From Leptogorgia sarmentosa (taxonomy: Eukaryota): a DNA stretch of 64,000 nucleotides. Below, piece after piece: positions 35,263 through 62,878 of the stretch (the first letter of the stretch is position 1; every line of letters begins with the position of its first letter). The stretch covers positions 24,924,001 to 24,988,000 of the forward strand of contig OZ210885.1 of assembly GCA_964658305.1 (NCBI GenBank). The letters are read 5' to 3'. Both the position numbers and the translations under genes were made by a program. Below the pieces are notes generated by a model that ran no database searches, had not been told where the DNA came from, and was given only the letters and a program-made list of their open reading frames with translations.

Positions 35263-35406
35263 ACTCTACACGAATGCGCGCGCAGATGTCAAAGGGAATT
35301 TCCTAAGGAAATATTTTTTGTAAGGAAATTTTGGAAGTTTACTTACATGATGAATGATGATTTGATGATTTGCATTCATTCGTGATTCATTCTCGCAAAA
35401 GCCAAA

Positions 35407-38459: not shown

Positions 38460-38887
38460 GCACATCCCTCGTTTATTGTTACGTTCATGCAGACTGTTCT
38501 ATTCAAGAGTTATCAATTAAAGCACAAAGACAAGATTATTCATTATTCTGATTGACGTTGCAATGACATGTCGTTCTTGGTTGCACCTTTTCACGGATTA
38601 TCGCCAAGTGACAGTAGGAAACATTCACGTTGGATATGATTTTCAGGTCCAGAAAATTACGCACTGTATCTATTATGTATACGGATATATTTACATTATT
38701 TTACCTAGTTTTGTTATTTCAATAATTCTTCACATTCATTTCGAACACTGCTGTTAATATCCAAGTGAGGAAAAACTACAACTTGACTGTAAAAGTTTAT
38801 GCATAATGCGTAACACCGTTCACATTATTTTGGGCTGAACGCATGATTATATACCGAATTTAAAGCATGAATTCTTGCAAGATTTTC

Positions 38888-40123: not shown

Positions 40124-40190
40124 ATTGTTTTTTAAATATTACACGCAATCTCGTCCCCTAATTAAAGGTTGCGCGCGCACGGTTTTAAAC

Positions 40191-40388
40191 TTTTGTTTGC
40201 AGTGTGCTTTTTATTTTGTTTGCAGTGTGCTTTTTATTTTGTTTGCAGTGTGCTTTTTATTTTGTTTGCAGTGTGCTTTTTATTTTGTTTGCAGTGTGCT
40301 TTTTATTTTGTTTGCAGCGTGCTTTTTATTTTGTTTGCAGTGTGCTTTTTATTTTGTTTGCAGTGTGCTTTTTATTTTGTTTGCAGCA
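40191..40388. repeat. 23-bp tandem array (~9 copies) in the right TIR
   Basis: Reverse complement of the left array. Confidence 0.95.
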
Positions 40389-40726
40389 TGACTTTGTATT
40401 CTGTTGGCAGAGTGTCGTTGGAAAATGTAACTCAATATATGTTTGCAGTTTGATGTTTTGTTTGCAATGAATTGGTTGTGTTATTTGCACGAATTCAATT
40501 TTATCGCAGTGGTTTAATTATTGATTGTGTTGTCCCTTCTGGGCCACCGTATACGGAAGACCACATGTATTCACACATTGAATAGTGTTAATCCTATATT
40601 TGTTCATGGATTCAATGCGACAATTGACAAAGGGATTACTTAAAGTAAATTGACTGGTCACATTCATAGCGATGAGTGACAGTTTTTGTAAATGAGAATG
40701 CATTAGTTCGATATAATCCATGTAGG

Positions 40727-43700
40727 CCAGGTTGGAAAACTTGCACTCGCTCGCAGTTACACAACAATTTAATGCCAAATCTCGCGCCTTAAATTTGCTT
40801 TGCTCGCATCTATCATCCGCCGGCTGATACGCCTGACGTTCTTCGTTTCGCATAATTGCAGCACTACGTAAGAACGAAATACCATATTAGTGAATACTGA
40901 ACACAACTTTTTTATTAATACCAAATAATTAATGTACAAAATCTGATCCTAAAGAAGATAAGGATATTTAGGCGGCATGTTCTTGATTCTATGAATAACC
41001 TTTGACTGGTTATTTCTTCTAAAATAGTTTCTGATTGACCTTGGGTCACGAAGCATAGGTGAGTTATGGCTGTCCAAATATTTTCGAGCAATTCCTTCAA
41101 CCAGATTGTCTGTATTGTTACCAATTTGAGGAAGTAACCAATCTAGTTTTGTTCTTAGCTCCAAGATCTTATTGGACTGATGGCATCGCTGTCGTTGTGT
41201 ATCCATAATAGCATAGAAACTTTCGGCTACTGCTTCACTGCCACCCGAGGCCATTGCGATGTCTAGAGACAACATGAACTCCGGTCCAAGTTTAGTATAG
41301 ATGCATTCCACTGTGTATAATATTTCAATAAGCTTTGATTCATCTAATACAGCTTTAATTTTCTTTCCGTTAAGAAGAGTCAAGATGAAAGTTTGGCGTA
41401 TTCCATTCGACTGATCTCTTTCCAGTGAAACAAAGTGTTCTGAGAGATATTTTCCAGAAGATTGCATGCATGCTACGCCATACTCTTTAAGACTGCCCCA
41501 AAACATATCGCAAAGGCACTCTTTAAAACGATGATACAAGGCATCTGAACAGCTTGCATCTAGGTAATGCAATTCATCTTTCTTTTTCTGTACGCGTGGA
41601 AGCGATATTATATATCTAAACCATACTTCGAAATCCTTTCTTCCCATCGCAAGATAGCTGCTTTTGTCTTTAACACAACCGATTGCATTCTGGTTGTCGG
41701 AGTCAGAGCACCTAGTTCCTTCAAGAGCAATCAACAGCTTCTCAAAGTCAAAGCATTTAGCCAGAAGTTTCGAAACTTCTGCTGTACCATTGTTTAATCT
41801 GTTTTCTGACGAAGCTTTTAAATCCACAGCAAACTTTCTCAATTCTTCCATCGACTCGTCTAATGATCTTTCAATCCAGGTATACATTGGTTCGTCATTA
41901 TAATCAGGATGCACCATCCTATCGTTGCTCAGTAAATGCCATCCCTCGAAAAGCTGAACCTCCTGAAACAAATAGTTCTTAAGGTCTTGCAGATGCTTCT
42001 CGTAGCGCGGTGTACCGGTTGGATTCTCTACTATTGCTTCCATCCAGGAAAGCATTCGTTGACCCCAGAATACAATTTTCCCATGAAGAAAGTCCACACT
42101 TTGTGACAATACCATCAACTCACATAACGGTGCCGTGATGTCTAACAAGCCAAGCAGATCCACGACAAAATCTTGTCCGAACATCCTGTACTGCAAAGGG
42201 AAATCTTCATCTGCATTTGAATGGGTAGCTTGAAATGATTTTCTTAAGACTGGGAATGATTTTTCAATTGATTTCCATTGGCCAACGGCAGAGCTTAAGA
42301 AACGTTGAGCGGCAAACGGAACAATAACACTTGCCCGTTTTGAACTGTTTTTTTGCACTCAGGTCAAGTTGTGCAAAGCCTTTCCCTCTTCCCATCATGT
42401 GATTAAACTTATTCGCTCTCTTGATGAATTTGGTAAAGAATTCTTGACTTTCGCCAAACTTTCCTTCTTTTATGTCAGTTGCTGCCAGATTTAACAAATG
42501 GGTGGTATCCCAAATTACTGCTTGGCAAAACTGCAATTCTTCCGGAATTCTATGCCTTCCTGTCTCTTCCTGTATGGTAAAACCAAACTCGTGGGCTTGA
42601 TATGGACCGTCAGCAGACGTTCCACAGTATCTGGTAAGATCCTCTTCATTAAGGTTCAGTTTCAACTTAATCGTGTTCAAGAAGTTAGTGGCAAGTTCTG
42701 GGGCATTTCCACCGCTAACATCAGGAAATTCTTCCTCTTCCTCTGACTCATTTTCATCTTCGGAGTTAGATGATTCTTCACCTTCGTCATGATTCCTCGT
42801 GTAAACAAGTGGCGCACCAACGGGATAGGCTCGGCGTTTTCCATTATACATGAAGACAATATATGATGCTTGGCTAGTTCGTCGGTTCACTGTTCCTTTA
42901 TCCAGCACGCCAAAGAAATGCGGACGCACTTGAGTGCACTTGAGCTCCGTCTTTAGAACATTCGTTGTTTTTTCGTCAACAAAATCCTCTGCAGCAACAA
43001 GCATAGCAAGCACTTGTTTTCGGCTGTGTTGCCGCTGCCCAACGTCAACACCACAGTCGTCTAAAAATGCAACAAGAGTTTCATAGTGTGCCGCTTTAAG
43101 CTTAAGGTCTGTCACCATGCACTTAACTAAGTTCTTTGTTGCTTCAAGTGCTTTTCTATTACATTCCTTCTCTCTTTCAGATTCTTTTATAGCAAGATAA
43201 TGATGTTTTCCTTTAGCAGTTGTCGAGGTACCCAATAAATGCGCTCTCAAGACTGATTTCAGTGATCTCCAAGACGAATTTCCACCTTTAAGGTACTGTT
43301 CTGTCCTCTCCTTGTCATTCCATATTCCTGTCACTGGATCCCCATGGTTGAATGGGTTTTTCTTACGAGCTATTTGATATGGAGACACATTTTTTATGTT
43401 TTCTTTGCCTATAGCAGCTTTGAAACATACTTCACAACGTATCACGCTCTCAGACATAACTTCGTCGTAGAAAAACTCTAAACAGGGCACTTGGGCTACT
43501 AGTTCAGTTATATTTCTGATTTTCCGCCACTCGTCAAGATTATTAGCAATTTGCTGTTTGTCCAAAAGTTCATTTGGTTTCTCTTCATCTAAGGTGTCGC
43601 CTATTTTCATCTCTTTCATTAATTTAACTACCTCCACTGCAATATCTGTTGCTGATGGCATTTCAGGAACAGTGTTCACTCTGTTGCTTTGATTTGACAA

Positions 43701-45413
43701 GTTAACAGAACTGTTGTCAACTTCGATTGCTTTATGTTCGTTTATAGCATCAACCTCTGGATTTAAAAAGTTATTGATATTAATTTGGCTTTTACTGTTG
43801 GGTCTCGCTTCTGAATTCAACTCAAGCTCAGATGAAACTGTATCTGCTACATTGTTAATGGGGTCTTGACAACTATGCAGAGTGCTTCCTTCCTGGGTAT
43901 TGCAGGTACTTGATCCTAAAGAATCTTGTGTAAACGTAAAGATGCCCTGTAGTTCCTCTGGATGTTCACTTTCTCCTACATCTTTCTCTACACTATTAAG
44001 TCGAGCTCGTTTTGGAGATGATCCACCAGTGCCTAAATTGGTTGATGGCCCCTTTTTAGGTTTCCTTCCCAATTCTTCTCTTGCAAGCAAATCACGTCCT
44101 TCATTAGATGCCTTCAAAACAGTTGTTATAGTCACTTCTAAATGCTGCTTTGATTTCCTATGCCGCTCAATGTCTGATGGCATTCCATTTGAAATGGTAT
44201 AATATTTTCGATTATTCAAGAGACACTCTTTGCACAACAACTGTTTGGCGTTTCCACTTTTTTTCGATTCTGAGTTAGATGATGTTATATTTTTCTTTCC
44301 TTTCAACCACCATGGTACTGAAAATCCAAATTAATATATTAAGACATACACTCTTGACTAATTGGGGGACCAATGGACCATGAAATATTTATTAGACAAG
44401 AAATAAATACTAAACCTGTTGAAGGAATTTCAGTATCTTCTCCATTGGCAGACATTACAGTAGCTTACATTTCCATGCTCTTTATTCTATTGTAAAAAAA
44501 TTCAGTAAACAGTGTTACACATGATGTTAACTATTATATCTACGGACTACGGTATACTTTCAGTCTTTCACAACATAAAATGGCATGTTTGCATTTCAAT
44601 TTCCAAGACAAATCTACATTTATATATTATAGACTGAATTTATAGATTGCATTTATAAATTATAATATTATAACTTTTTTAATTGACAATATTAACATGC
44701 AGTGTTAGTATATGGTATTCCTTTTCTGGTGACTGGTGGGCTAAATAATTAGACTTATTTAAACCTGCAGTACAAGTACCAATAGGAATAGCTATAGCTT
44801 ATTGATTTGTATGTTTATAGAAATATGAATATTTATGCCTATATTTTATATATGAATTATGATTTAGTAAACAAAGCAAAATTCAATCCATGTCTCACAG
44901 AATGTACTAAGTAAATTGTACATTTATATATGACAATATTGTGAAGAAAATAAAAACAAATTATTGGCATGATACCTTTCAGTTTCATCAGTTCAATCGC
45001 AAATCGTTGTCGCAAGCTAAACTCGTAAAATCGTAAAGCATGGGATCGGAGAGTCCATGTGACCATAGTGTAATACTTCATCTATGCTCCATTGTTTTGT
45101 CTCAACAATTCCGTTATTTATAATTGTTAAAAATCGCCATATTAAACCAAAATCTACATCAATACATAATGCTCTCAGTAGGAAATTCTTCAGATTTCTA
45201 CCGACTTCTACTTTCAAGGCATTAACAATGACCTAGTGAGTTATAATGGTTTGATCAGTAATCAGTTGAGCCATGTTGCCTTTAAAAGTCACTCGCTGTT
45301 GTCGCTGACTCGCGGCTCGCTTGTGACGACAAGATTACTCGCAGGTCGCACCTAATCAGTTTTATACTCTCGCAGCTACGCGTAGCGGATTTGATACAAG
45401 TTTTCCAACCTGG
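40727..45413 (-). mobile_element. hAT-type DNA transposon with a divergent transposase
   Basis: 17-bp TIR CCAGGTTGGAAAACTTG; 8-bp TSD CATGTAGG at 40719-40726 and 45414-45421. Confidence 0.92.
40949..44455 (-). pseudogene. hAT-like transposase (~1140 aa; exons 44455-44416 and 44317-40949) with one frameshift at an A-run near 42350
   Basis: PWWLK, CKEC..H...H BED-like finger, LDKGT, ADGPY, WDTTH, QRFLS, SEAVAES; two overlapping ORFs in different frames. Confidence 0.8.
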
Positions 45414-45788
45414 CATGTAGGAAGCGCTAAATTAGCATGCAAAAAGTTCACGCTAGTTAGTATGCAAAAGTAACTGGTATGCAAAAAGTAAATAGTATGC
45501 AAGACGTTAATTGATTCAGACAGCGGTTAGTGCAATTAGTGAGGGAATTCTTATAGGCAGAGTAGCGTGTCGCGACATGTATTCAAGACACATATGCATG
45601 TTATAAAAGTGAACTTGTATACGCATATAAAAAAGGTATAATTTTCAGTAAAAGAGTGTGTGTGTGTGACTAAAAAGGACGTGTGACAGTAGAATAAATG
45701 TCAAATATATATCGTATTATGATACAGAGGCGCACATATGTTGTCACAATCAGTAACCTTGACCCGAACACAGGGCTAGGACCCTCTT

Positions 45789-46061
45789 TGTGCTTTTGTG
45801 GAATATTCCACAAAAGCACAACTTGTGCTTTTGTGGAACTTGTGCTTTTGTGGACTTGTGCTTTTGTGGACTCAGGCCATTTAGGACCATGTGCTTTTGT
45901 GGACTTTATTTGTGCTTTTGTGGACTTTATTTGTGCTTTTGTGGACTTGAAATTTATGACCATGTGCTTTTGTAGACTTTATTTGTGCTTTTGTGGACTT
46001 GAAATTTAGGACCTTGTGCTTTTGTGGACGAATGCTTAATTCTGATTGGCTTTTGTGGACT
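45789..46061. repeat. Cluster of about a dozen TGTGCTTTTGTGGA(C) motifs
   Basis: Directly visible; further copies at ~55458 and, inverted, at ~55625. Confidence 0.9.
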
Positions 46062-46687
46062 TGCTTTTGAATCTGATTGGTTAAGAGCTGCGGACAGCTT
46101 AACTCTGCAGGATTAAGGCGGGGTTTCACCAAACTTGGCACACATGGCCGCAGACCAGTGGTTGACATTTGACAATGGTGCGGTTCACATATCTCAGGAT
46201 GGTTTTGACCAATCGGGCTAATAATTGGTCAGTTGTTACATTGTCCGAGGCACTATTGTGCAACATAGCCAATTTGGCAATTTGAAAATTGATGTTGTCG
46301 GATGGACTTAAGACCATGTGGATACAACTCCCCATGGTCCCTAGATCATGATGGGCTTGGTTTTGAGACCACGCCCTGACCACGCCCACTAAAAATGATC
46401 AGCTTGGCCCAAAACATATTTTGAAATCATTAAAAAATGGGCGTGGTCGATATTTTTTTCAGGTGACCACGCCCATCAAAGTTGTTTAGAATTGTCCGAA
46501 ACGTATTTTGGAAAATAAAAAAATTTTTTAGGGCGTGGCAAAATTGACCACGCCCAAAAAATTTTTAAAAGTTGTTTAGTTGTTTACGAGGAACATTTTT
46601 GCAATATATTTGTTTAAGGAAAAATAGGTACTTCGTGGTGAAAACGCGTAGAAATTATATAGAAATTCATATTAGATTTCAAAATCC

Positions 46688-48637
46688 AATATGGCCGCCA
46701 ACATTTCCATTAATTTATTAATAACTTGTGAAAACAACCCCTTTATACAATTAACGATATATCAAATTGAAGCCCGTAATACGGGACGTGTAATGATATT
46801 TGAACCACCGTCTAGCACCGTTTCGTTGCAAAGTTATAAGCAAAATTGTAAGATAATTATCGAAATTCATAAATCCAATATGGCCGCCAACATTTTTCAT
46901 TAATTTGTTAATAACTCATGAATAGAACATGCTTATACAACGAACGATATATCAAATTGAAGCCCGTAAAACGACGATTGTAATGATATTTGAACCACTG
47001 TCTAGTAATGTTTCGTTGCAAAGTTATAAGCGAAAATGTAATATAATACATAAGACAAGAGCATTTATGGCGCATCCGCATTCATCGCCATGTTTGTCAA
47101 GACGTTTCACCATGATGCACGCATTGTTTCTTGAGTATATATATTGTAAACATACTCACCGTCATCATATAAACATGGCCTACATGTTTGATGTCTCATA
47201 TGTTGGGCGTGGTCTCGGTTCACCAATGTTAAACATCATGGTGTGTGGCCACGCCCAGTTTGCGGTAAAAAAATTGTTTTTCTTAACATTCTGTTGTTCA
47301 GCGTCTGGGCATCTATAAAATGTTCACTACGTATCTGTAGCCTCTAAAACCACAGAGATATCGCATGGTAAAGTAGGTCAAATTACCATTTACGACCATG
47401 TTTAACGTCGCGTAGCCACCTTAATATAACTTTATAAGTTACAGCAAGCACCCAGAATCCTTACCTAATACATGTACTTTCACGTGGCAAAGCATGAAGT
47501 GTATTCACGTAAAGGTAAAAGAGATATTGCATGAACAGTTTTATAGAAATTCATATTAGATTTCAAAATCCAATATGGCTGCCAACATTTTTTATTAATT
47601 TGTTAATAACTCATGAATAGAACATGTTTATACAACAAACGATATATCAAATTGAAGCCCGTAATATGGGGCGTGTAATGATATTTGAACCACCGTCTAG
47701 CACCGTTTCGTTGCAAAGTTATAAGCAAAATTGTAAGATAATTATAGAAATTCATAAATCCAATATGGCCACCAACATTTTTCATTAATTTGTTAATAAC
47801 TCATGAATAGAACATGTTTATACAACGAACGACATATCAAATTAAAGCGCGTAACACAACGATTTTAATGATATTTGAACCACTGTCTAATAATGTTTCG
47901 TTACAAAGTTATAAACAAAATTGTAATATAATATATAAGACAAGAGCATTTATGGCGCATGCGCATTCAAGGCCATGTTTGTCAAGACGTTTCACCATGA
48001 TATACTCATTGTTTCTTGAGTATATATATTGTAAACATATTCGACATCATCATATAAACATGACCTATCTGTTGGATGTCTCATATGATTGGGCGTGGTC
48101 TCGGTTCACCAATGTAAACATTATGGTATGTGACCACGCCCCGTTTGGAGTACATAATTTCTGTTTTCGCACATTCCGTTACTCTGTATCTGGGCATCGA
48201 GCAAATGTTCACTGGGTTTCTGTAGCTTTGAAAACCTCAGAGATATTGCATGGTAAAATAGGTCAAATTACCATTTATGACCATGTTCAACATCACATAG
48301 CCACCTTAATATAATTTTATAAGTTACAGCAACCACCCAGAATCCGTCTCTAGTACATGTACTTTAATGTGTCAAAGAATGAATAGCATACATAGAAACC
48401 TACAGGAGATATGGGATGAAAAGTTGAAAAAAAAATACCAACATGCACCATTAAAATTTTACTAACTCTTCTGCATTAATTTCTCAAACTTTTCTTCCCA
48501 GTTCTCTTGTAGGTTACCATGTATGCTATTCATTCTTTGACACATTAAAGTACATGTACTAGAGACGGATTCTGGGTGGTTGCGGTAACTTACAAAATTA
48601 TATTAAGGTGGCTATGTGACGTTCAACATGGTCATAA
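46688..48637. repeat. Left arm of a ~1.95-kb inverted repeat (two ~890-bp tandem units plus a terminal hairpin)
   Basis: Reverse complement of 51787-53735; recurring AATATGGCCGCCAACATTT and GACCACGCCC. Confidence 0.88.
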
Positions 48638-48709
48638 TCAAATTTTGCACCATATTGTTGCGAATAATATATATCTATAAAACATATATATATATATTGT
48701 AAAGAACTT

Positions 48710-51449
48710 GTAAAGACTCGGTGTCCCAGGTATTTATTTTCCTGCCGCCACTGTATACCCAGGAAGCCGCTTTCTTCAGTGACGGCAGTTCTTGTACTTT
48801 CTTGGTTTCAAGGTAGTCATGTGCCTCCTGTGGCACAGCGCCCGCCAGCTTCGGATTCTGCAGACACTCTTTTTCCACGAGAGCAATTTCGGGCACCAAA
48901 CCTTTGCTCAAAACAACGCCAAAGACTTGTAGCAGCTGTTTTTTCTGCTGGACGCTCAATATCGGGTGGTCAGGTAGCTAAATAAAAAAAGAATTATGAA
49001 CAACGATATCTTTTGTGGGAGAAAACAATTTCCCAAAACTTTTTTATATCAGGTAGTTACCTTTCTTGTGCCGTTGCCTTCCTCCTCCTCGCTACCATCA
49101 TCATCATGATGAGAGCCTTCACGTGGTTGATCGATATCTGTCGTGTGTTCAGGTAGCTAAATAAAAAAAGAATTATGAACAACGATATCTTTTGTGGGAG
49201 AAAACAATTTCCCAAAACTTTTTTATATCAGGTAGTTACCTTTCTTGTGTCTTTGCCACCAGTGACAGTTTTTATAAATGTCGCCATGTGGAGGTCTTCT
49301 TTTTCAGTGTTGGCGACGTTATAAAATTGGTCAGCAGTACTGACCGCATGCGTCATCTGTTTGGCAAGCTGTTCGTTTGACACTGTTCACGACTCTCCTA
49401 GTTTTTGCTGGCCACTGATTATGGCTTTTCTTAGGCCAGCCCCGTGGATGTCGACGCCCATCCTTTTGCCGATGGTATTAATTCTTAATTCGGCTTACCC
49501 TGGACTCGTTGAGCACGTTTCCATTGCAGTTGATAAAAAACAGCGGCTCCGAAGGCAAGCCAGACTTCGCTTCCGAGACGGACTCGGCATTTGCGAACAA
49601 TGGTCGCATATGGGCCTTGTAGATGTCCCCCATTCGTTTCAGCTCGGCGTCCCAAAACAGCTTAGCTGGACCTTTAGATGTAGCAGTCTTGTGGTGGTGC
49701 GTCTGCGTCACAAACAAGTCGCCCGTCATCTGGCCGCGCTCATATTCCGCGACCGTCAGGTTTGCTAGGGCCCCACATCGCTGCCCACTTGCCATCAGTA
49801 GCCGTAGCATGAGAAAATCTCTCATTTCAGAGAATTCGCCCACTGACACCAGACGGTCGGGGTCCTCCAATTCTGTGAATAGTTCCCGAACGTCCTGGCT
49901 GGTTTTAGTTGCCAACATCCGGGAAAAATCTTCGGTACCAAGAAGACGCTCTTGGGCGTGGCTTTTACCTCCGCCCGACGCCGCGTCACCGCCATCGTTA
50001 ATGAACCTGGCCAGAAATCGAGGCGTGATAGAGCCGCCCGCACAAGCTCGAGATCACGATCGGTCAGCTTGTAGATCCGCATAATGGTCTCCACACGGCT
50101 TTGGACAAATTTTAAAAAGAGCCTGTATGACACGATGTAGGTCTTGAGGGTCTGCGCCTTCCTTGGTCTTTGGAGAAGATCGTTCCCTCGGAAGAAGTTG
50201 TTCCGAATCTTATCCAGGGACTCGTCGGCCCAGAGCAGACGGACATTTTTGCCGCTCGAATCAATCTCGTAGAGAAGGCGACAGACCCTCCTTGCGTGTT
50301 CCTTGGCGTCAGATTTCTTGCGATTTTTACCTTCGAACGAGGTTAGGTGCCGGTGGAAGAGTTGGAAGAGGGGATGTTGGGAAATGCCCGTTATTTTCTC
50401 GGGCAGTGGGTCGTCTTTTGGGGCCCTTGGTTCTCGTGACATCTTTTCGAGTTCTCTTTAGACGTCCCCCTCCCCCTCGTGACTGCCGTGCTCTGACGGT
50501 GACGATGGTGACGACGGCCTGGGAGAGGCGGGAGTTCTGCTCGACTCGACGGCAATTCCACGTCGTTTACGTCTTCTTTCGTCGTTTGCCATCTGAGTGA
50601 ATCTACGATAACAAAACATATGTGGTCAATTAATTGCTGCATAAGTACTGTTATTATTATTATATGTATGTAATATAAACATACTAACCGCCTGAAGTCC
50701 GGGTTTTCCGGGTCCATTTTGTGGACGCGTTTGAGATGGTTGTCCAATCTCAACTGCCATTTCTGGCAGTCTTCGATTGGACACTTCACCTTGATCTTTC
50801 CCGCTTCCATCGGTTTGAATCCCGAACTCACTTTGACGGCCTCTTTGTTCGTTTTGCCGTGCACGCGTCTTAGGTGCTTTGTCATATACGCCACCTCGGC
50901 GTCGCAAAGTTGGCATTGACGCCTCTTCCTCTCGTACTAAAATAAAATAAACACCTTTTAATATATAACTCGAAAAATATATATCTAATATATATAATAT
51001 ATTATATAGAATATATATATCTATATATATAAAATATAACACGGCACGAACCTTCCCTTTCCTATTCCCCGCATCTTCAACCTCTTCCTCTGAGGGGGAA
51101 GATGGTTCTTGCCGTGGTGCAGCTGGTGCAGTTGGTGCAGTTGGTGCAGTTGGTGCAGCTGATGCGGCTCGTTTCTTAGCCTTCTTTCGCGGAGATGGGG
51201 CCATAATGTCAATACCGTGGAAAATCTCGAGATCTTCCTGGGCTAAAGTTTTATTATCAAAGAGATAATTTAAATTAATATAACTTTATAAATACATAAC
51301 AGTTGGAAATACGTTATTATAATTCACAAAGATATATATACCTTTCACTTCCGAAAACTCTGCTGGAGTAGGCTCGTACTCCGACTCACTGGACAGCTCC
51401 GAATCGCTGCTTGAAAATAGCATTGGTGTCTGCTTGGAAGAAGACATTC
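48710..51449 (-). pseudogene. Spliced tyrosine recombinase gene with two N-terminal C2H2-like fingers; frameshifts and in-frame stops
   Basis: Manual translation: SGQRCGAL (R), HHKT (K), GLRKAII (R), LAKQMTH..TADQFY (H, Y); CQLC..HLRRVH and CPIEDC..HLKRVH; frameshifts ~49960 and ~49480; TGA ~49388. Confidence 0.85.
48969..49250. repeat. Two identical ~100-bp intron-containing segments, 180 bp apart
   Basis: TCAGGTAGCTAAATAAAAAAAGAATTATG...GTAGTTACCTTTCTTGTG at 48969 and 49149. Confidence 0.85.
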
Positions 51450-51786
51450 TAAATAAAATATAAATTTGAATGTTCATGAATAATGTTAATGGATGAAAAA
51501 CGATTCAGAATCACAGAATTTTTTCTTGAGTATATATATATTGTGAAAATGTTTCCGGCAACCATATAAACATTATCAAAATGATTCTGGTCTCATATGA
51601 CTGGGCGTGGTCGCGATTCACCAATGTAAACATTATGGTATGTGACCGCGCCCCGTTTGGAGTACATAATTTCTGTTTTCACACATTCTGTTACTCTGTA
51701 TCTGGGCATCGAGAAAATGTTCACTGGGTTTCTGTAGCTTTGAAAACCACAGAGATATTGTATGGTAAAGTAGGTCAAATTACCAT

Positions 51787-53735
51787 TTATGACCATGTTC
51801 AACTTCACATAGCCACCTTAATATAATTTCATAAGTTACCGCAACCACCCAGAATCCGTCTCTAGTACATGTACTTTAATGTGTCAAAGAATGAATAGCA
51901 TACATGGTAACCTACAAGAGAACTGGGATGAAAAGTTTGAGAAATTAATGCAGAAGAGTTGGTAAAATTTTAATGGTGCATGTTGGTATTTTTTTTTCAA
52001 CTTTTCATCCCATATCTCCTGTAGGTTTCTATGTATGCTATTCATTCTTTGACACATTAAATTACATGTACTGGAGACGGATTCTGGGTGGTTACTGTAA
52101 CTTATAAAATTATATTAAGGTGGCTATGTGATGTTGAACATGGTCATAAATGGTAATTTTACCTATTTTACCATGCAATATCTCTGAGGTTTTCAAAGCT
52201 ACAGAAACATTGAACATTTTCTCGATGCCCGGACACAGAGTAACAGAATGTGCGAAAACAGAAATTATGTACTCCAAACGGGGCGTAGTCACATACCATA
52301 ATGTTTACATTGGTGAACCCAGACCACGCCCAATCATATGAGACATCCAAAATATAGGTCATGTTTATATGGTGATGGTGAGTATGTTTACAATATATAT
52401 ACTCAAGAAACAATGAGTATATCATGGTGAAACGTCTTGACAAACATGGCCTTGAATGCGCATGCGCCATAAATGCTCTTGTCTTATATATTATATTACA
52501 ATTTTGTTTATAACTTTGTAACGAAACATTATTAGACAGTGGTTCAAATATCATTACAATCGTCGTGTTACGCGCTTTAATTTGATATATCGTTCGTTGT
52601 ATAAACATGTTCTATTCATGAGTTATTAACAAATTAATGAAAAATGTTGGCGGCCATATTGGATTTATGAATTTCTATAATTATCTTACAATTTTGCTTA
52701 TAACTTTGCAAGGAAACGGTGTTAGACGGTGGTTCAAATATCATTACACGCCCCGTATTACGGGCTTCAATTTGATATATCGTTTGTTGTATAAACATGT
52801 TCTATTCATGAGTTATTAACAAATTAATAAAAAATGTTGGCGGCCATATTGGATTTTGAAATCTAATATGAATTTCTATAAAACTGTTCATGCAATATCT
52901 CTTTTACCTTTACGTGAATACACTTCATGCTTTGCCACGTGAAAGTGCATGTATTAGGCAAGGATTCTGGGTGCTTGCTGTAACTTATAAAGTTATATTA
53001 AGGTGGCTACGCGACGTTAAACATGGTCGTAAATGGTAATTTGACCTACTTTACCATGCGATATCTCTGTGGTTTTAGAGGCTACAGATACGTAGTGAAC
53101 ATTTTATAGATGCCCAGACGCTGAACAACAGAATGTTAAGAAAAGCAATTTTTTTACCGCAAACTGGGCGTGGCCACACACCATAATGTTTACATTGGTG
53201 AACCCAGACCACGCCCAATCATATGAGACATCCAAAATATAGGTCATGTTTATATGGTGATGGTGAGTATGTTTACAATATATATACTCAAGAAACAATG
53301 AGTATATCATGGTGAAACGTCTTGACAAACATGGCCTTGAATGCGCATGCGCCATAAATGCTCTTGTCTTATATATTATATTACAATTTTGTTTATAACT
53401 TTGTAACGAAACATTATTAGACAGTGGTTCAAATATCATTACAATCGTCGTGTTACGCGCTTTAATTTGATATATCGTTCGTTGTATAAACATGTTCTAT
53501 TCATGAGTTATTAAGAAATGAATGAAAAATGTTGGCTGCCATATTGGATTTATGAATTTCTATAATTATATTACAATTTTGCTAATAACTTTGCAACGAA
53601 ACAGTGCTAAACGGTGGTTCAAATATCATCACACGCCTCGTTGTACGAGCTTCAATTCGATATATCGTTCATTGTATAAAAGCGTTGTATTCACAAGTTA
53701 TTAATAAATTAATGGGAAATGTTGGCGGCCATATT
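51787..53735. repeat. Right arm of the ~1.95-kb inverted repeat
   Basis: Reverse complement of 46688-48637; mirrored spurious ORFs in the track. Confidence 0.88.
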
Positions 53736-56228
53736 GAATTAAGGTGGCTATGGGACGTTGAACATGGTCATAAATGGTAATTTGACCTAATTTACCATGC
53801 AATATCTCCGTGCTTTTACATGCTACAGAGACGTAGTGAACATTTTATGGATGCCCAGATGCTGAATAACAGAGGGAAAAAATTTTTTTACTCCAAACGG
53901 GGCGTGGCCACCCATCATAATGTTTACATTCGTATATCTCTGCGGTTTTAAACGCTACAGACATGTAGTTGCTGTGGCAAGCATTGCGTTGTAAACTCTT
54001 GTAGATGACTCTTGTCCCATGCCCCCATCATGCAACGCGGGGGAGAGACATATGGTAACGTATTTATGGTCTGACCACGCCCATTTTGGCAAAAAAATAT
54101 TTGAAACCACCAGATTTGTAATTGCTTGGTGGTATGCTAACTAAAATTATTGTTAAGGTGGCTCTGCAATTTAAACCTAAAAAGCTCGGCAAAACTAGGG
54201 TTAGTTTAAATTGAAAATTTGAAGCCTTTTGGGCCATTTTTCAAAATTCTAAATGGTACCCATAATTCCTTGGAATACCAAAAATTGGCCCATGGAAGTG
54301 GTTCCGTAAATATTGACGATGATGGCTGTTGAATTTTAATGAAGTTTGAAAAGTTTGAAAATATGTCATCGCAATTGCGTCATAAATTTTGAATTTCTCG
54401 ATGCGAATTTTTTTGTGGCGAATCCCCGCGCGGAGGACAATATAACTGTGGTGGAGAAATTTTCTGTTATTTAAACGCAGCGAAGATATCAAAAGACAAA
54501 GTTTTACGTATTGAATGGCTTATAAATGTCTCAAATTTTAATTTTTTTTAATGATTTTCACAAGTGTTATAGCACATGATGAGACGTATCAGACTGTGCA
54601 ATTAGATTTTTAAATGAAGCTATCCCCAGTCACCGAGCGTCCATTTTAGAAAAACACAAAATCGGCAATATCTCATGAACCAAGACCTAAAATGAAAAAA
54701 AAAAAATCATCTCGAGGTATTTCCAGGTGCTTCCACTTCACGAAGTTTGGTGTGTTTCCACTTTAAAAAAAAAAGTTATCGTGTTCGGAAAAAGGGCAAA
54801 ACATTGCCATAAAATACACATAAAAGTCGATATAAAAAGATACTGTAGCTTTATGAGAAAAGTTTACTTTTTAAAGTTTACACTGTCTGGTACAAAATTG
54901 GACGGGCTACAAGCTGAAAAAAAAACAAAAAAAAATGAACTCATTCCCAGGCCTGTAGATCGAGAAAACTGAACTTTGGAAAAAGTATTATATCTTCTTA
55001 CTGTTTTAAGATATTAAAAAACGGTAACGACAGTTAGGTAGCCTGCATCGACATGTACAAACGAGGAAAGTTTGAAGCAATTAGACCAGGGAGAAGCAGG
55101 AAAAATCCGGGGGGGAAGTTCTTTGGAATGGGTCCAAATGACCCCCCTATGGAGAAGTCGGTGAAGATCATCTTTTTCCGGAATTCTGACGACGGAATCA
55201 TGTTCACCACCCACGATTACCTATACACACCGAGTTTCAACCTCCTAGGTCCTTTCTAACCATAATTTTTTTTTTGTCAGGGCTGGGTATATACCACCAA
55301 TGTGTCACCATACATATACCTGACTTTTTGGGAGACCCTGGAAACTCTCATTTAGGACCATCTTAGGGTTTTCGGGGGTGCCCTACACGATGGAAAACAT
55401 GACAAACCCCCTTGGTTTGAATAAAAACCCTCTTCATGGGGCTGGTACACAGAACTTGTGCTTTTGTGGATTTCTTTCCTTCCAACCCCCCCTGAAGGCG
55501 CGCGTTTTAATATTTTTGAAAAATTTTTTTAAGGAATTGTTGCCCAGGTCCCAAAGTACATGTGTACCAAATTTCAAAAAAATCCACCATAACCCCCCCC
55601 CCAGAGGGTCAATTTCAAGGAAATTCCACAAAAGCACATGGTCCCAGTTAGGGCGAAGGTTCTTTCGCTGTTCCAATGAAACATCGTGTGGTTATTTTGA
55701 ATGGATACCTGAAGAATCGTTGAAACCGCAATTACCGCATAGCGTTGAAGAACCTTTTATACCGTCGTTCTACAACTATGGTGGCCCATCGTTATCACCG
55801 CAATTTTCAGGAATATTTCTATATCGTCTTTCATTTAAATAATTGTTTTGTTTATAAATTAAAGACATATGACAAAAAAAACTTATTTAGTGTATTTACA
55901 AATGTAAAATAATACTGATTTTCAGTTGTAATACAAATTGTTTCTTGTGTTAAACTGAATTTTTTTTTAAATGCAACAAGTTTCAGTAAATTAATTAATA
56001 TTTTGATTGATAACGCTGGGCCGTTCGAATTTTAGTTTTTGATCGGCCCAGAACTGCCCAACGTTATCAGTTTGCTCCATAAAGACTGGGTTCAATAATC
56101 AAATTTCCCGCTCTTTTTTCCCACCATTTCAAATTCCGCCATATTGATAAATTTCATATATTTGTCAACAGGCTTGTTGAATCCAATCATAGCTTGAGTA
56201 GTGTGGAATTATTCGTATGTAGTTAGCG

Positions 56229-57502
56229 ATGTCAAAACGGAAACAGGGCAAAGAGAGTTGGGAAGCTTTTGAAAGAAGAGTAGGGTTAAAGCGGACCCGT
56301 CAAGAGCGAAATCTTGCGTCGGATAAAAGAACACTTGTCCCAAATGACATATTAGTGCAGAGAATGTCAACTTCTCCCAGTGGAAGACTGAAAAAATACG
56401 AGCCGTTAGACACTAGAGACTTTGTCCCATTTGCAGAATATGAGGAACTTTCAATAGAGAATATTAAAGACGCTTGTGAACAATTCTATAACGCACCGGC
56501 GGGGTCGTGTGACATTCTAGCTTCGGACCGAGGACCATCGTGTACAAAAATGGAACAAATCAAGGGGAAAAAGGTGTATTTTATCCGTTTCTTACCACCT
56601 ACGGAGCTTAATACGACAAAACAGCCTACAGTTATGGGGTCAAATTCGTCGCCAATTTCGTCATCGAAGATTGCTAATGTTGATAGCAACCATCCTACAA
56701 CCCCTAAGACAGTTTATCCAAAGTCAGTTTCTATCGGGGATCTTCTTCGGGCTGGGAAGCTGGTACGACCTCCACAGTTAACAACTCTCACATTGGAAAC
56801 GTTTGATGTCGAAAAATGTGAATGGACAAAAAATAATTTGACTTTGTCTGTTGAAATAGAGGAAACCAAGTTTGACAGTGGAGCCTTCAGAGATGCCTTC
56901 CGAGCCAAATGCAGAGATACATCATCTGGCCTGGCAGGTGAATGGGTGATAAAGAAATACAGAGACGAAGCTGTTACCACCATACAGGAGCAGTTGCAAA
57001 TGTCTGTGGAAGATCATACAAGAAAACAAGTTCAAATGCATGCAGTTGCTCGGAATTTGACATCACGTTTCTCTGTTAAAGTGCCCCAGGAATTTGGAGA
57101 AGCTTTCCAGTATGGAAAAGTCTTTTATTCCCAATGGAATGAATGCCCAGTTACTGTTGAAGAATATGTAGAAGGTGTTTTCACTAAGTACATCAACAAT
57201 GATGGGGACATAATGAAGCCTGATGACATTGAATCTGATGAGATTTTCCAGAAAGCACAGTGCCTGGTTCACTTCACATACATATATTCTGAGAAAAGGC
57301 TAATGGTCCTAGATATACAAGGTTCAGCATATAAACTTATGACCCAGAAATTGTGACTACAGAGCTTATGGCAAAGACTGACAAATCCCATGAGGTATAT
57401 TTTTGTGCTGGCAACCTCTCAACTATGAGCATTAACAGTTTTGCAGATAGTCATGTGTGCAATAAATTTTGCAAGATGATGGAACTGCAGTCATTAAAAT
57501 AA
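56229..57502 (+). CDS. Intronless alpha-kinase (eEF2K/TRPM6-7/MHCK-type catalytic domain) with a 1-bp frameshift near 57338
   Basis: FDSGAFRDAF, WVIKKY, VEEYVEGVFTKYINNDG, HFTY..LMVLDIQG; the shifted frame continues YDPEI..FCAGNL..HVCNKFC to TAA 57502. Confidence 0.88.
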
Positions 57503-58037
57503 CATTGAACTTTTCAATTAGTTCCTTTACAAGTATAGATTTGACATTAGTTGTGTTTTCTTAACATTTTTACTGGTTACATTACATTTATGTATTATTT
57601 ATTGTATTATTGTATTACAAACTTTATTGTCCCTCCAGATGGCACAGATTGCTTCTCTGTGGGTGGATATTGAAGAGTTTTATACAATGTGAATATGAAT
57701 GTCAAGGTCTTCCAATTTTGTCTAAATTTTATAATAGAAAATTATACAGTTTAACAGTATTTCATGCATATAAACTCAAATATACATCCATCTTGGGTTG
57801 TTACAGAAAAAAATCCATACTCTGCCCACAGAGGAAATTCTGCTGCCCAGAAAGGGGGAGGGAAAAAATTGTTTCTGATAATAATAAATGTATTAGGACA
57901 TCTGAAGGGGGTAGAGGGGGGGGTTACTTCTTTTTTCTCTGTAGGGGTAGTATGAATGTTTTATGGAATGACCAATTAACCTAATTACTATATGTACAGT
58001 AACTCCTGAATATGACCTCAATGTTATAATAGTTCCT

Positions 58038-59264
58038 TCATGTTTCTGGTGGATAAGGAATGTTTTGCTTGAGGAATCGGTAAGCTTCAATTGCATTCTT
58101 AGCTTCAATGTTTTCAGGATTTGGAATCAGTCCCACACATTGTTGCCTTGTATTTGCTTCAATGAAATGAACTATGTGTTCTTCATCCATCACTCCTGAA
58201 ACGTCAGCAACATCCTGGATGTCATCCTCTGACAACTCAATTCCTTCATTTGTGGCTTCATAATTCTCAGGGAAAGAAAACATGTGGTTAGGTATGCCAA
58301 CAGGAATTTCCAACTTATCTTGTGCACATATTCTGTGTGAATTCCAGTAGTTAACAAAACTATTACATTCTCTTTGAACTATAGGTACATAAATATAAGC
58401 GAGCAATTGGCGATCATGTGCAAAGTCAGGATTGTACTCTCGTCTTTGCAGCAGGGCTGTTAACTGTTGCTTGAAGAATTTCTCCAACCTTTCATGCAAG
58501 TCTCGCCACCAACGCTCTATCTTATTGCTTGTTGACGGACCATAGATCACAGAATCTGTAGGGTCATTCATAATTGCAAATTTGTTTATGAGATATGAGT
58601 GAATAGTAGCCATTTTACCAGTTTCAGTTCCTCTGTCAATTCTCAAAAATCTAGGAAGGATCTTTGTTTCAAACAGATATTTTAGGTACATCTTACCCAC
58701 AACAAAAGGATCTGAGTTCGAAGTGCATACAAATAAGAATAAAATCTTTCGAGAGAAAGTGTCAAGGCATCCATATATACCAAGAGGGAATGTCCAGTTT
58801 TGGTAGCCGCAAAGTTTATCATGACCATCCAACGACACTACCCACAATGGACCTTCTGAAGTAAAATGTCCCTTTGGTTTTTTCCTCTTCTTCTGAAGAT
58901 TCCTTGCCTCTAATCCAGCTGGGTCCAAGTCTGCCATCATATTATGGACTACATGCCTTGGTACTTGTATCTTGTGATCTGTTCGTAGCTTCTGGTTCAT
59001 GGCTCGATAGCCTAGAAGTCTGCCAGGGCCATCTAATTCTTTTTGTACAGCTTCTGCTACTGCAGCTAGTGGAGTATCATAATTAATATAGTGAATATCG
59101 AAGTGACGAAGACGTCTATCAAGAGTAGCAAGACTCCATGAATACTCCGAATAATCGCGTCGCACAAAATCTAGTATTTCACATCGTCGTAAATTTTGAC
59201 CAACGTAGCATTTCAAGTCGTTCTGGAGCTCAGTATTTTCCTTCCAACTGATATTTTCAGCCAT
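58038..59264 (-). CDS. IS3EU-like DDE integrase-core transposase (intact)
   Basis: ATLDRRL, LLGYRAM, SLDGHDKL..IYGCLDTFSR, IDRGTET, STSNKIERWW; homologous to 38888-40123. Confidence 0.9.
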   Translation of the reverse strand: MAENISWKENTELQNDLKCYVGQNLRRCEILDFVRRDYSEYSWSLATLDRRLRHFDIHYINYDTPLAAVAEAVQKELDGPGRLLGYRAMNQKLRTDHKIQVPRHVVHNMMADLDPAGLEARNLQKKRKKPKGHFTSEGPLWVVSLDGHDKLCGYQNWTFPLGIYGCLDTFSRKILFLFVCTSNSDPFVVGKMYLKYLFETKILPRFLRIDRGTETGKMATIHSYLINKFAIMNDPTDSVIYGPSTSNKIERWWRDLHERLEKFFKQQLTALLQRREYNPDFAHDRQLLAYIYVPIVQRECNSFVNYWNSHRICAQDKLEIPVGIPNHMFSFPENYEATNEGIELSEDDIQDVADVSGVMDEEHIVHFIEANTRQQCVGLIPNPENIEAKNAIEAYRFLKQNIPYPPET

Positions 59265-59887
59265 ACAATCAAGCAAATACACACAACATTGAGTTGCACA
59301 AAAACATCGTGGGCATTTTCATGGTGTAAATAAATTAGCGGGAATTTAATAATTAGCGGGAAATTTGATTATTGAACCCAGTCTTTATGGAGCAAACTGA
59401 TAACGTTGGGCAGTTCTGGGCCGATCAAAAACTAAAATTCGAACGGCCCAGCGTTATCAATCAAAATATTAATTAATTTACTGAAACTTGTTGCATTTAA
59501 AAAAAAATTCAGTTTAACACAAGAAACAATTTGTATTACAACTGAAAATCAGTATTATTTTACATTTGTAAATACACTAAATAAGTTTTTTTTGTCATAT
59601 GTCTTTAATTTATAAACAAAACAATTATTTAAATGAAAGACGATATAGAAATATTCCTGAAAATTGCGGTGATAACGATGGGCCACCATATACAACCCTT
59701 GTCAAAATTGAAACATTTATAGAACATTATATATATTGCTAGTTGATTTGGAACCGTTTAAATGCATAGAGTACAGCTGATTTTGTAATGTTCTAAGTAC
59801 ATAGTAAAACGTATTTGCAAATGGTTTTAAATATATATTTGAAATGCTTCACGATATCATGCTCATTTGATTTTGTCCTGGGGAAAG

Positions 59888-60324: not shown

Positions 60325-60960
60325 ATGATGGACGTACGATTTAAGACGCCTGCTAACTTTTATATTTGCGGTCAAAGTCAAAGTGGAAAATCGTACTTAA
60401 CACGCTGTTTGTTACGCCACGTGGGGGAATTGTTTGACCCTGCACCTACAAAAGTAATATACTGCTATGGAGAGTATCAAAAGGAATTTGACCAACTTTT
60501 TCCTAATGTTGAGTTGGTAGAAGGTTTTCCAAACGACATTGGCGAACTAACAAAAGGTCACGACAACTCTTTACTCGTACTGGACGATTTGATGTCTCAG
60601 TGTTCTAACGACTCTCGCGTTGCGGACTTGTTTACGCGCGGTTCGCATCATCGTGGAATATCTGTGTTGTATTTGACACAAAACTTATTTCCACCTGGCA
60701 AATTATCCCGCACAATCAGTTTGAATTCCCACTACATGGTTATATTTCGAAACCCGTGCGATTCGTTGGGCATTACCACATTAGCAAGGCAAATGTTCCC
60801 CAAACACGCCGATTATCTTTTGGAAGCATTTCGTGACGCAACGAGTAAACCCTACGGCTATTTGCTCATTGACTGTCATCAATTAACTCCCGAAAGTATG
60901 CGTTTGAGAACCAACATTTTACCCAGGGAACAACAATTCGTTTACGTAAAGCGTATTTAG
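60325..60960 (+). CDS. Polinton A32/FtsK-like packaging ATPase
   Basis: Walker A GQSQSGKS, Walker B LLVLDDLM, SHHRGISVLYLTQNLF, PYGYLLID. Confidence 0.93.
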   Translation: MMDVRFKTPANFYICGQSQSGKSYLTRCLLRHVGELFDPAPTKVIYCYGEYQKEFDQLFPNVELVEGFPNDIGELTKGHDNSLLVLDDLMSQCSNDSRVADLFTRGSHHRGISVLYLTQNLFPPGKLSRTISLNSHYMVIFRNPCDSLGITTLARQMFPKHADYLLEAFRDATSKPYGYLLIDCHQLTPESMRLRTNILPREQQFVYVKRI

Positions 60961-60995
60961 AACAAGGTACGTTATCAAACTTAGTCATTATCAAG

Positions 60996-61322
60996 ATGTC
61001 GAAGCGAATGAGAAGAAGTCTTCCCTACTTGCAAATTTTGGCAGTGTGTAAACCAAAATTGCGCCAGGCAGTTATTGTACATGCCCCCGCTGAAGTAATT
61101 TTGGCTATTTGCGAATGTTCGCTAAACATGCTTAAAGGGGTCATCCCTTTGACACCGCGTCAAAAACGGGCGTTATCGCGTTATAAGAAACATCTCCGTG
61201 CTTTAGCTGATAAAAAAGTATCCAGAAAGCAAAAGAAGCGTTATTTAAGTCAGAACGGAGGAGGTTTATTAACATCGGTTTTACCACCTGTTTTAAACGC
61301 ACTAGGGAATTTGTTGGTATAA
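60996..61322 (+). CDS. Small basic Polinton protein with a C-terminal GG-amphipathic helix
   Basis: 108-aa ORF in the gene cluster; AICECSLNMLKG, QNGGGLLTSVLPP. Confidence 0.8.
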   Translation: MSKRMRRSLPYLQILAVCKPKLRQAVIVHAPAEVILAICECSLNMLKGVIPLTPRQKRALSRYKKHLRALADKKVSRKQKKRYLSQNGGGLLTSVLPPVLNALGNLLV

Positions 61323-62257
61323 TGAAAAAGGCAAGACGGATGGCACTGGTGCCCGAGGAAATGTTGGATAAATTTGAACGAAAGCAAAAATTGGAAACCT
61401 CTCCGATTATTTCGAATCTTTTGCAAAGCGATAAACGTATGTCGGACATTCTTGAACGTTCGGATTTGGGCGACGACGAGAAGCAGAAACTGTACAATAT
61501 GGACATGCAACGCTTTTTGGAATTACGGCAACAGAAAAACAGCCAAGTCCCGACGGTTCGATTTGCTCCTAATATACAGGAAGGAAATGAAGCAATACCC
61601 CCGGAGCCACTCGAAGCCCAATTACCTCAATCATCTGAAGATGACATTGTGGCAAATTTGCCGAAGACGCATCGTACGAGGGCCACGAGTCTTTTGAATC
61701 GATTAAAAGCGAGACCTGATGTGATTACGTGGGACGATACAGGGCAAGTCAACATTGAAGGGGAAACTATTCCAAATTCTAACATAACGGATTTGGTTAG
61801 CGATGCCATGAGATCAAGAAAAAATTTTAATCCAGTGGGTTCGAGAGTATTCTTTCAAACATTATCCAAGTTAAATGTGCCCAAAGATCTCGTTAGAAAT
61901 GACGACCGATGGAAACAAGAGGGCGAAACGAATTCTACCCAAACACGGCGATCGGGAGGTTTCGGCAGACCCTCACGAACTGGAGGCTTTGGCAGTCCAC
62001 GAACTGGAGGTTTCGGCAGTCCACGAACTGGAGGTTTTGGCAGTCCACGAACTGGGGGCTTTGGCAGTCCACGAACTGGGGGCTTTGGTAGTCCACGAAC
62101 TGGGGGCTTTGGCAGTCCACGAACTGGGGGCTTTGGCAGTCCACGAACTGGGGGCTTTGGCAGTCCACGAACTGGGGGTTTTGGCAGTCCACCGTCCACA
62201 AGCTCATTTCAACCAAGAGAAGAAAGACGCGTACAAGAACAGTGGATAAACTATTAA
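61322..62257 (+). CDS. Polinton hypothetical protein with RTGGFGSP repeats
   Basis: 311-aa ORF; ITWDDTGQV..G..IPNSNITDLV motif; 24-bp repeat x9 at 61976-62191. Confidence 0.8.
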   Translation: MKKARRMALVPEEMLDKFERKQKLETSPIISNLLQSDKRMSDILERSDLGDDEKQKLYNMDMQRFLELRQQKNSQVPTVRFAPNIQEGNEAIPPEPLEAQLPQSSEDDIVANLPKTHRTRATSLLNRLKARPDVITWDDTGQVNIEGETIPNSNITDLVSDAMRSRKNFNPVGSRVFFQTLSKLNVPKDLVRNDDRWKQEGETNSTQTRRSGGFGRPSRTGGFGSPRTGGFGSPRTGGFGSPRTGGFGSPRTGGFGSPRTGGFGSPRTGGFGSPRTGGFGSPRTGGFGSPPSTSSFQPREERRVQEQWINY

Positions 62258-62374
62258 TTTTTGTTATTTTGTTATATGAATAAATGATTTGAAATTATTT
62301 GTTGTTGCCGTTTTTTGTTTGATAAAACCCCACACAATGTTTTTCTTACAAATGATTTTATTAATGCAATAAGT

Positions 62375-62878
62375 TTACAACAATCTTTTACAACATTGAT
62401 TAAGGCCACTAGTTGGCTGTTTAAATGTAAAGTGAGCTTGAACAAAACGAAACACTTTTTTATCATTTAATTCGGAATCATTACTAAACATCTGCACGAT
62501 TTTTTTCATGCTAACACCGCGTGTTCTATGACTAAGATAAAATATACTATATTGTCCACAAACATCGGACCAGTTTCCCTGTAACTTGCGCTTGTTATAG
62601 TTCCATTCGTGAGAATGTTTTTTTAAAAAGTTCTTAAATTCTGTGTAATAATCGGGTGAATGGCCATAGCTGTCAAAAAATTCTCCTTCCCCCTCTGACG
62701 GAAAGTAAAAGGCTACCCAATGCGTTCCGGGTTTACTGCTCGGGTCCGTGTTGGCAACAAATCCACAAGGATATTTTTCCAGCGTTTGCGGTATTTTATT
62801 GCTAGGAAATACTCCGCAAAACATTTTGCGCGCAATAGGATCTTGTCCTAAAGCGTGTTTTATTTCAAAAGTGTTCAT
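62375..62878 (-). CDS. Adenain-like cysteine protease
   Basis: GTHWVAF, FFDSYG, LQ...SDVCGQY give the His-Asp-Gln-Cys catalytic pattern. Confidence 0.92.
   Translation of the reverse strand: MNTFEIKHALGQDPIARKMFCGVFPSNKIPQTLEKYPCGFVANTDPSSKPGTHWVAFYFPSEGEGEFFDSYGHSPDYYTEFKNFLKKHSHEWNYNKRKLQGNWSDVCGQYSIFYLSHRTRGVSMKKIVQMFSNDSELNDKKVFRFVQAHFTFKQPTSGLNQCCKRLL

Follow-up and report, generated by a model that had tools for sequence, protein, structure and literature searches.

Mobile elements with a gene for a tyrosine recombinase (YR) occur in several described groups, and those most pertinent here are Cryptons and Starships. Cryptons are described as carrying terminal repeats of 4 to 6 bp and as having abundant nonautonomous derivatives, and the sites used by YRs contain spacers of 6 to 8 bp (PMC3212892). 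In the account given by the same source, the animal groups CryptonA and CryptonI have no terminal repeats and no C-terminal domain, CryptonA being related to DUF3504, and CryptonF and CryptonS carry terminal direct repeats of 5 to 6 bp that were taken as recombination substrates (PMC3212892). CryptonV (Kapitonov and Jurka 2012, Repbase Reports, as summarized in PMC8869645) comprises cnidarian YR DNA transposons, some of which target microsatellites; the name also appears as a class in PMC4455052 and PMC5753468. For Starships, the short repeat at the ends has been argued to be microhomology, excision was described as footprint free, and a circle was found in sequencing reads (PMC10104507, 10.64898/2026.09.21.753150). 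According to the statement of a 2026 review, Crypton transposition is without experimental demonstration (PMC13565253). Here, we analyzed a stretch of 64,000 nucleotides of Leptogorgia sarmentosa contig OZ210885.1 (positions 24,924,001 to 24,988,000; hereafter the window), which contains a 9.9-kb segment with a YR gene at its center. We consider it probable (roughly two chances in three) that this segment, which had inserted into a Polinton-like element, is one dead Crypton-type DNA transposon copy, for which we predict excision as a circle and integration by site-specific recombination.

We regard the element as unusual in form and amenable to tests, but as one of a known kind and not as a new kind of system. 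Its importance is limited in that this copy is dead and its kind is known. What is new is its size, its offset inverted ends with an array of motifs, and the position of its gene between 2-kb inverted arms. The att-like ends are unusually clear. The element is of interest for its sharply defined ends, for an array that is a candidate binding site, and for the specific prediction that it allows (an 8-bp spacer, 5-bp homology, and three bases borne by the element), as well as for the size of the recombinase family, whose members contain introns and fingers and, in some cases, a SET domain. If the proposed mechanism is true, animals own a native Cre-like integration system for 7 to 10 kb.

Ends and internal arms of the element

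An initial annotation, made from the sequence of the window, had claimed that AGGGC is repeated at both junctions. This pentamer is present on the forward strand at positions 45772 to 45776 and 55650 to 55654. The left terminal arm (45777 to 45803, forward strand) begins at the first base past the repeat with TAGGACC, followed by the first, inward-facing copy of the 14-mer TGTGCTTTTGTGGA. The right terminal arm (55625 to 55649, reverse strand) consists of an inverted 22-mer that ends at 55646 and three unmatched bases, after which the repeat starts. The 22-mer is a 21/22 inverted match to a long array unit at 45882 and is thus set 3 bp inside the core. The annotation had stated that there are no true terminal inverted repeats (TIRs); this holds in that no exact TIR is found at the termini, and it has to be amended by the offset, imperfect inverted arm.

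The 14-mer TGTGCTTTTGTGGA occurs 13 times in the window when up to one mismatch is allowed, and all copies lie within 45789 to 55638; by chance, a mean of 0.02 copies is expected (maximum of 1 in 100 shuffles). The outermost copies face inward at distances of 12 bp (left) and 11 bp (right) from the cores, and 11 copies, 10 direct and 1 inverted, form a left subterminal array (45789 to 46028, forward strand) in which the direct copies are spaced 16 to 35 bp, in agreement with the inverted motif and left-end array noted in the initial annotation. Another direct copy is located at 55457. Two 14-mers of the array, which are inverted with respect to each other, form a perfect hairpin (45789 to 45820; 15-bp stem; z of about -6 on both strands) that lies 12 bp inside the left end and does not include the core, and no fold was detected at the right end (z of 0.2 and -0.9).

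The choice of the AGGGC repeats as boundaries of the element is backed by the limits of the motifs, the 5-bp repeat, and the phase of the interrupted GRF-finger frame (see below), which coincide there. If the inverted arms are taken as the boundaries instead, the two 8-bp flanks agree at 5 of 8 positions, which is not the exact 8-bp target site duplication (TSD) found beside the TIRs of hAT-type elements; a match of 5/5 is obtained only with the right arm offset. At this one insertion site, AGGGC falls within the 4- to 6-bp range of Crypton terminal direct repeats. The chance of finding a shared pentamer at two random positions is 0.0015 for fixed offsets, 0.011 with a leeway of 1 base, and 0.053 with a leeway of 3 bases. 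In this single copy, AGGGC may represent the core of the crossover, as inferred in the initial annotation; a target duplication would be the alternative. Two observations on the end sequences are added. At 45772 to 45785 and 55643 to 55653, the GGG of the core can pair with a CCC located 5 to 6 bases inside the element, which offers an alternative geometry of the half-sites. A GGTCCC...GGGACC pair at the published Hephaestus junction resembles the arms; it is spaced 10 bp wider and was treated as a chance likeness.

Between the ends, the gene is enclosed by 2-kb inverted arms that had not been noticed in the initial annotation. A unique noncoding outer-left segment (46030 to 46651), rich in the motif GGGCGTGG (6 copies), is followed by the left inner arm (46652 to 48661), which is composed of ~2.2 tandem units of 885 bp, each holding two 190-bp subrepeats, and which includes a flip point (near 48450) as well as a short inverted tail. 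In the right inner arm (51520 to 53970), the section from 51787 to 53740 is an inverted copy of 46683 to 48637. The inverted copies are 96% identical over 1,957 bp, neighboring tandem units are 88% alike, and the flip point is present in both arms. A unique noncoding outer-right segment (53971 to 55624), which holds the single direct 14-mer mentioned above, completes the structure. Since the two outer segments and the two arms all contain GGGCGTGG (16 copies in total, with one more in the gene) and it is absent from the 54 kb outside the element, we regard outer segments and arms as one unit. The inner inverted arms are likely to be internal expansions.

The recombinase gene and its family

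As claimed in the initial annotation, the center of the element holds a YR gene with the R-K-R-H-Y set of catalytic residues and C2H2-like fingers, here two in number; the gene is broken, though. It is located on the reverse strand (48675 to 51447) and has about 770 codons in six exons (51447 to 51342, 51242 to 51052, 50936 to 50689, 50602 to 49240, 49156 to 49061, and 48977 to about 48675). All five introns are AT-rich with GT-AG borders, and the phases of the exons join. The encoded protein has an acidic/basic N terminus, the two fingers, core-binding and catalytic domains, and a C-terminal extension. Four lesions were found, namely, stops at 50458 to 50460 and 49387 to 49389 and frameshifts near 49965 and 49490. 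The second stop has a different letter in contigs of two public sequencing runs (X1 and X5), and less damaged copies or alleles therefore exist. Little of the space between the arms lies outside the gene, and an acceptor-like site precedes its first coding exon; the gene therefore probably needs sequence of the right arm. Exon 5 is made by a 117-bp duplication (97%) of an intron together with its exon borders (48962 to 49078 and 49141 to 49257), at which a contig of another run (X4) skips 232 bases. A Pfam scan of eight frames inside the element revealed no DDE transposase and no reverse transcriptase, including the reverse transcriptase/RNase H of the DIRS, Ngaro, or VIPER type; the remainder of the element consists of repeats and short frames.

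The HMMER search retrieved a family of 789 representatives at an E value of ≤0.001, of which the best 150 were fetched. The YR profile PF00589 was matched above the cut-off by the proteins P0001 and P0002, and the nearest intact relatives are 54 to 65% identical over the aligned pieces (P0002). The catalytic residues are largely kept in 57 aligned relatives (R in 56, K in 57, R in 54, H in 54, and Y in 52). The finger exon was matched in 29 of 195 fetched proteins, and 30 of the 50 fetched proteins of at least 600 residues, which include one false match (P0082, a NACHT-LRR protein), have at least one finger motif. Twenty clusters were looked up; the five with species names are all cnidarian, which by itself would make a cnidarian host probable. 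Two recombinase-family models from Hydractinia (P0194 and P0195) have a predicted N-terminal SET domain (E value of 5e-16). No match to DUF3504, DUF3435 (PF11917), ALOG, or GCR1_C was found in the family proteins searched, which for DUF3504 were P0002 to P0004 and 55 relatives, 23 of the latter matching PF00589 at an E value of ≤0.01. The recombinase tree holds the fetched relatives only, with no Crypton or DIRS references.

The predicted structure of the intact relative P0002 (pLDDT of 87.5) matches XerH (Z score of 16.5, root mean square deviation [rmsd] of 3.8, 294 aligned residues), the integron integrase (15.7, 4.1, and 276, respectively), and Cre (15.0, 3.9, and 288). With XerA and the Tn1549 Int included, the Z scores range from 14.7 to 16.5, and Foldseek E values reach 5e-7. 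According to this model, the intact relative of the broken recombinase has a Xer/Cre-like fold.

Scans of viral, metagenome, and genome collections for relatives of the recombinase yielded no confirmed locus. A search with the pattern of the end motifs gave no match in viral sequences and 20 matches in metagenomes, about the number expected by chance; none had an array or agreed with the element beyond the pattern itself, and all were dropped. We found no description of the elements of this finger-containing YR family in the literature, in a search that did not cover Repbase Reports.

Host locus, proposed movement, and alternative explanations

The element interrupts an open reading frame (ORF) on the forward strand. 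Its 5' part (45698 to 45775) is open up to the break and has Ser and Asn at GRF-like positions, with no Cys or His in frame and, taken alone, no Pfam match. The 3' part (55651 to 55776) encodes the C-terminal half of a GRF zinc finger (positions 22 to 42 of 45 of PF06839, with an E value of 4e-5, just under the curated cut-off, and also similar to NEIL3) and ends after about 42 codons, where a second insertion begins. The claim that excision restores a GRF-finger ORF can be retained as regards the phase and the continuity of the motif, and it does not extend to an intact gene, as the 5' part lacks Cys and His and the 3' part carries a further interruption. Among random stretches, ~0.001 show an open frame together with Asn at -2 and Ser at -7, the positions having been chosen post hoc. 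To judge from its sequence, the flanking gene has decayed and was interrupted twice. We found no homologue free of interruptions; the search with the GRF half covered homologues of 34 to 111 residues.

The interrupted host spans from about 31827, via TATGCA mini-repeats, to a block of genes at 60325 to 63960 with a putative packaging-type ATPase, a putative C5 protease, and a capsid-like ORF. Both Pfam matches are under the cut-off (AAA, E value of 0.005; Peptidase_C5, E value of 0.004), and the capsid-like ORF has no database match; we take its identity and the Polinton-like character of the block from the order of the genes. The host ATPase and the right flank gave no viral match. We read the host as the left end of a putative Polinton, the gene block of which reaches the end of the window; the YR element lies about 745 host bases from the left end of this host. 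The initial annotation had proposed a large intron-containing YR element inserted into a Polinton gene. The data support one such YR element with these ends in the left part of a Polinton-like element. Within the long Polinton ORF, a 24-bp tandem array (61950 to 62200) encodes GGFGSPRT repeats.

Five insertions are nested within about 870 host bases at 31827 to 64000. Apart from the YR element, these are a foldback element (31930 to 34519; 10-bp TSD), an IS3EU-like element (34649 to 40551; 6-bp TSD), a hAT element (40727 to 45413; exact 8-bp TSD and exact 17-bp TIR), and a second IS3EU-like element of the DDE type (55777 to 59690; TATGG...CCATA ends, 6-bp TSD TACAAC, rva_4 integrase, and alpha-kinase). 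The latter begins 120 bp into the right flank, is separate from the YR element, and is missing from the initial annotation. The names IS3EU-like and hAT are our presumptive assignments. All four have exact TSDs of 6 to 10 bp, and three have an exact terminal inversion of 17 to 30 bp. The foldback element, presumably MuDR-like, has 1.26-kb arms that are 97% identical around a spacer of about 80 bp. Both IS3EU-like elements carry an extra convergent gene, which is an alpha-kinase (PF02816, E value of 3e-22) in the one; in the other, it consists of spliced frames without an assigned function. Elsewhere in the window, an apparently intact BEL/Pao retrotransposon (14334 to 21795) has a 1,948-codon frame and near-identical long terminal repeats.

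Given the ends, gene, fold, family, and nesting described above, we propose the following mechanism. The recombinase would bind the terminal GGACC arms, and the zinc fingers would probably read the array of 14-mers, unless this array binds further recombinase monomers. The two ends of the element would synapse, and in the predicted circle, where a single core links them, GGACC arms would lie on either side of an 8-bp spacer in a loxP-like arrangement, which agrees with the 6 to 8 bp of YR sites (PMC3212892). The eight bases of the target match only the last five of this predicted spacer, and AGGGC would therefore be microhomology and not a duplication. The three unmatched bases at the right end would be what the element contributes to an overlap with partial mismatch, resolved by replication. 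A Cre-like exchange would leave target bases at the left junction and element bases at the right, which matches the junctions observed. Loss of the spacer between the long inverted arms may give rise to gene-less, nonautonomous copies that would be moved in trans.

Parts of the element were found in 7 of 15 listed public sequencing runs, from two studies. Four of these (X1, which may be the source sample, X4, X5, and X6) were compared, using contigs only, over 45300 to 50900, a range that covers the left junction. A contig of X6 bridges the outer-left segment and the arm (46099 to 46687), and in X1 and X5, contigs connect 46644 with different positions of the unit, so that outer segment and arms go together and the number of units varies.

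A number of observations weigh against the proposed Crypton-type origin or fit other readings as well. (i) The canonical His of the H-x-x-R motif is replaced, with Thr being present in 38 of the 57 relatives. (ii) Elements of the hAT and other DDE types typically have TAGG starts and subterminal arrays, too. (iii) The sharing of k-mers between the outer segments and the arm is not above that of controls (for 8-, 10-, and 12-mers, 76, 23, and 51 of 300 controls, respectively, reached it). (iv) Arms are joined to each other without the gene in three of the four runs (48637 to 47990 in X1 and X5, 48658 to 47991 in X5, and 48653 to 47105 in X6). (v) The mean depth of the gene is below that of the outer-left segment in X4 to X6 (outer-left to gene ratios of 160:167 in X1, 12:3 in X4, 21:3 in X5, and 8.5:0.6 in X6, which do not measure copy number). 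(vi) One insertion site was seen; at the left junction, the 24 loose ends listed, of a total of 220, included neither an empty site nor another flank nor a circle junction. (vii) In all four runs, a listed loose end of the left flank, which is of high depth, exits after 45769, one base into the proposed 8-bp spacer, into other DNA that starts with CACTG and is found nowhere in the window, being neither the element nor the right flank. Candidates for this exit are the inner border of a Polinton terminal repeat, a separate insertion, and a deletion form. The initial annotation had named ends lacking the YR core and having variable TSDs as evidence against its reading; half of this combination was found, namely, the arms joined without the gene. 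These gene-less arms are likely nonautonomous copies, and a nested or captured gene would explain both them and the lower depth of the gene as well.

A captured gene is part of the first alternative, which we regard as unlikely, though as the likeliest of the alternatives. It holds that the outer element is a nonautonomous, hAT- or foldback-like DDE transposon, moved by an unrelated transposase, and that the YR gene, whether captured or left behind between the arms, plays no role in moving it. Besides the gene-less centers and the hAT-typical TAGG and tandem array at the left end, it can draw on the long modular inverted arms, which resemble those of foldback elements, and on the several hAT and other DDE elements in the window. 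However, a DDE transposon with arms that are still 96% identical would have to have flanks that match at 5 of 8 positions with three adjacent mismatches, next to a hAT element with an exact 8-bp TSD. The 5-bp repeat with the offset arm suits YR elements, and the presence of a YR gene amid YR-like ends would be a coincidence.

Less probable still is that the true Crypton is a 2.85-kb cassette (48662 to 51519) nested in a separate nonautonomous element. GAAT is found at both of its sides, next to TA-rich tracts, the joints of X1, X5, and X6 connect the arms without it, and some CryptonV families target microsatellites (PMC8869645). However, a four-base microhomology is ordinary at deletions, and the gene-less joints take up the unit 18 bases or more ahead of the point at which the window resumes it, so that none is a clean empty site. 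Moreover, in the cassette some 70 bp would remain ahead of the start codon and no more than about 40 bp beyond the last exon, a terminal motif is lacking, and the acceptor-like site before the ATG suggests an exon further out.

We give little credence to the idea that the same element and enzyme integrate via a folded single strand, as in integrons and CTX, and not as a double-stranded circle. The perfect hairpin close to the left end and the integron integrase among the tied best folds speak for it; however, the right end has no fold, the hairpin excludes the core and is possibly a simple inversion within the array, and XerH, Cre, and Tn1549 Int score alike. Finally, that the flanks are unrelated, the left one being the end of one repeat and the right one a piece of another gene, with AGGGC and the phase due to chance or to an assembly join, is very improbable: the left flank continues into other DNA in four of four runs, its frame lacks zinc ligands, and no uninterrupted homologue was found, but the core lies at matched offsets from both motifs (P of about 0.01), the open frame with Asn and Ser is rare among random stretches, and all other insertions of the nest close on their own TSDs.

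Returning to the Crypton-type element, a broader view would be that it belongs to a lineage of large animal YR transposons whose att ends are Starship-like and which homes to Polintons, so that it could ride a virus-like element between genomes. We consider this a speculative extension with low odds. There are two hints of homing to Polintons. In the predicted protein P0164, from another record, 24 N-terminal residues are 63% identical to the Polinton-type protease of the window and are followed by a sister recombinase; this fusion, seen in 1 of 195 proteins, may hint at a second association of a Polinton with a YR. Furthermore, the exit at 45769 lies where a Cre-like top-strand cut would fall, as if the site were a recurrent target.

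Comparison with known systems

The bacterial systems share the enzyme and the arrangement of its sites. The Tn916/Tn1549 integrases and Cre-loxP have the same core-binding and catalytic fold and inverted arms around a spacer of 6 to 8 bp, and Tn1549 tolerates a mismatched overlap; in contrast to the present recombinase, they have no introns or C2H2 fingers, and their identity with it is 9 to 18%. Starships, in particular Hephaestus, resemble the element in being large YR elements with a repeat of terminus-target microhomology and TIR-like arms and with scarless excision, and for Hephaestus a circle has been shown, with 36 junction reads against 6,959 end reads. They differ in being fungal, in having a DUF3435 captain as the first gene at the 5' end, and in carrying cargo, whereas the present element has a central gene, no DUF3435, and no cargo.

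Among the Cryptons, CryptonA and CryptonI are similar in that they have a YR only, with no reverse transcriptase, give rise to nonautonomous derivatives, and occur in cnidarian hosts. The present element departs from them by its 5-bp repeat and its inverted end motifs, and its protein has N-terminal fingers and a C-terminal extension and no match to DUF3504. With CryptonF and CryptonS it shares the short terminal direct repeat, but it has neither the GCR1_C of CryptonF nor the TATGG termini of most CryptonS, and its host is an animal. CryptonV elements likewise encode a YR and are cnidarian, as are all five species-named recombinase clusters found here; they differ in that some families insert into microsatellites, whereas the present target is a coding stretch with no microsatellite. 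Judged by the features tested, the element is not a CryptonA, CryptonF, CryptonS, Starship, or DIRS element. CryptonV, compared here by its brief description only, is its likeliest home, and by analogy its way of working would be Crypton- or Starship-like.

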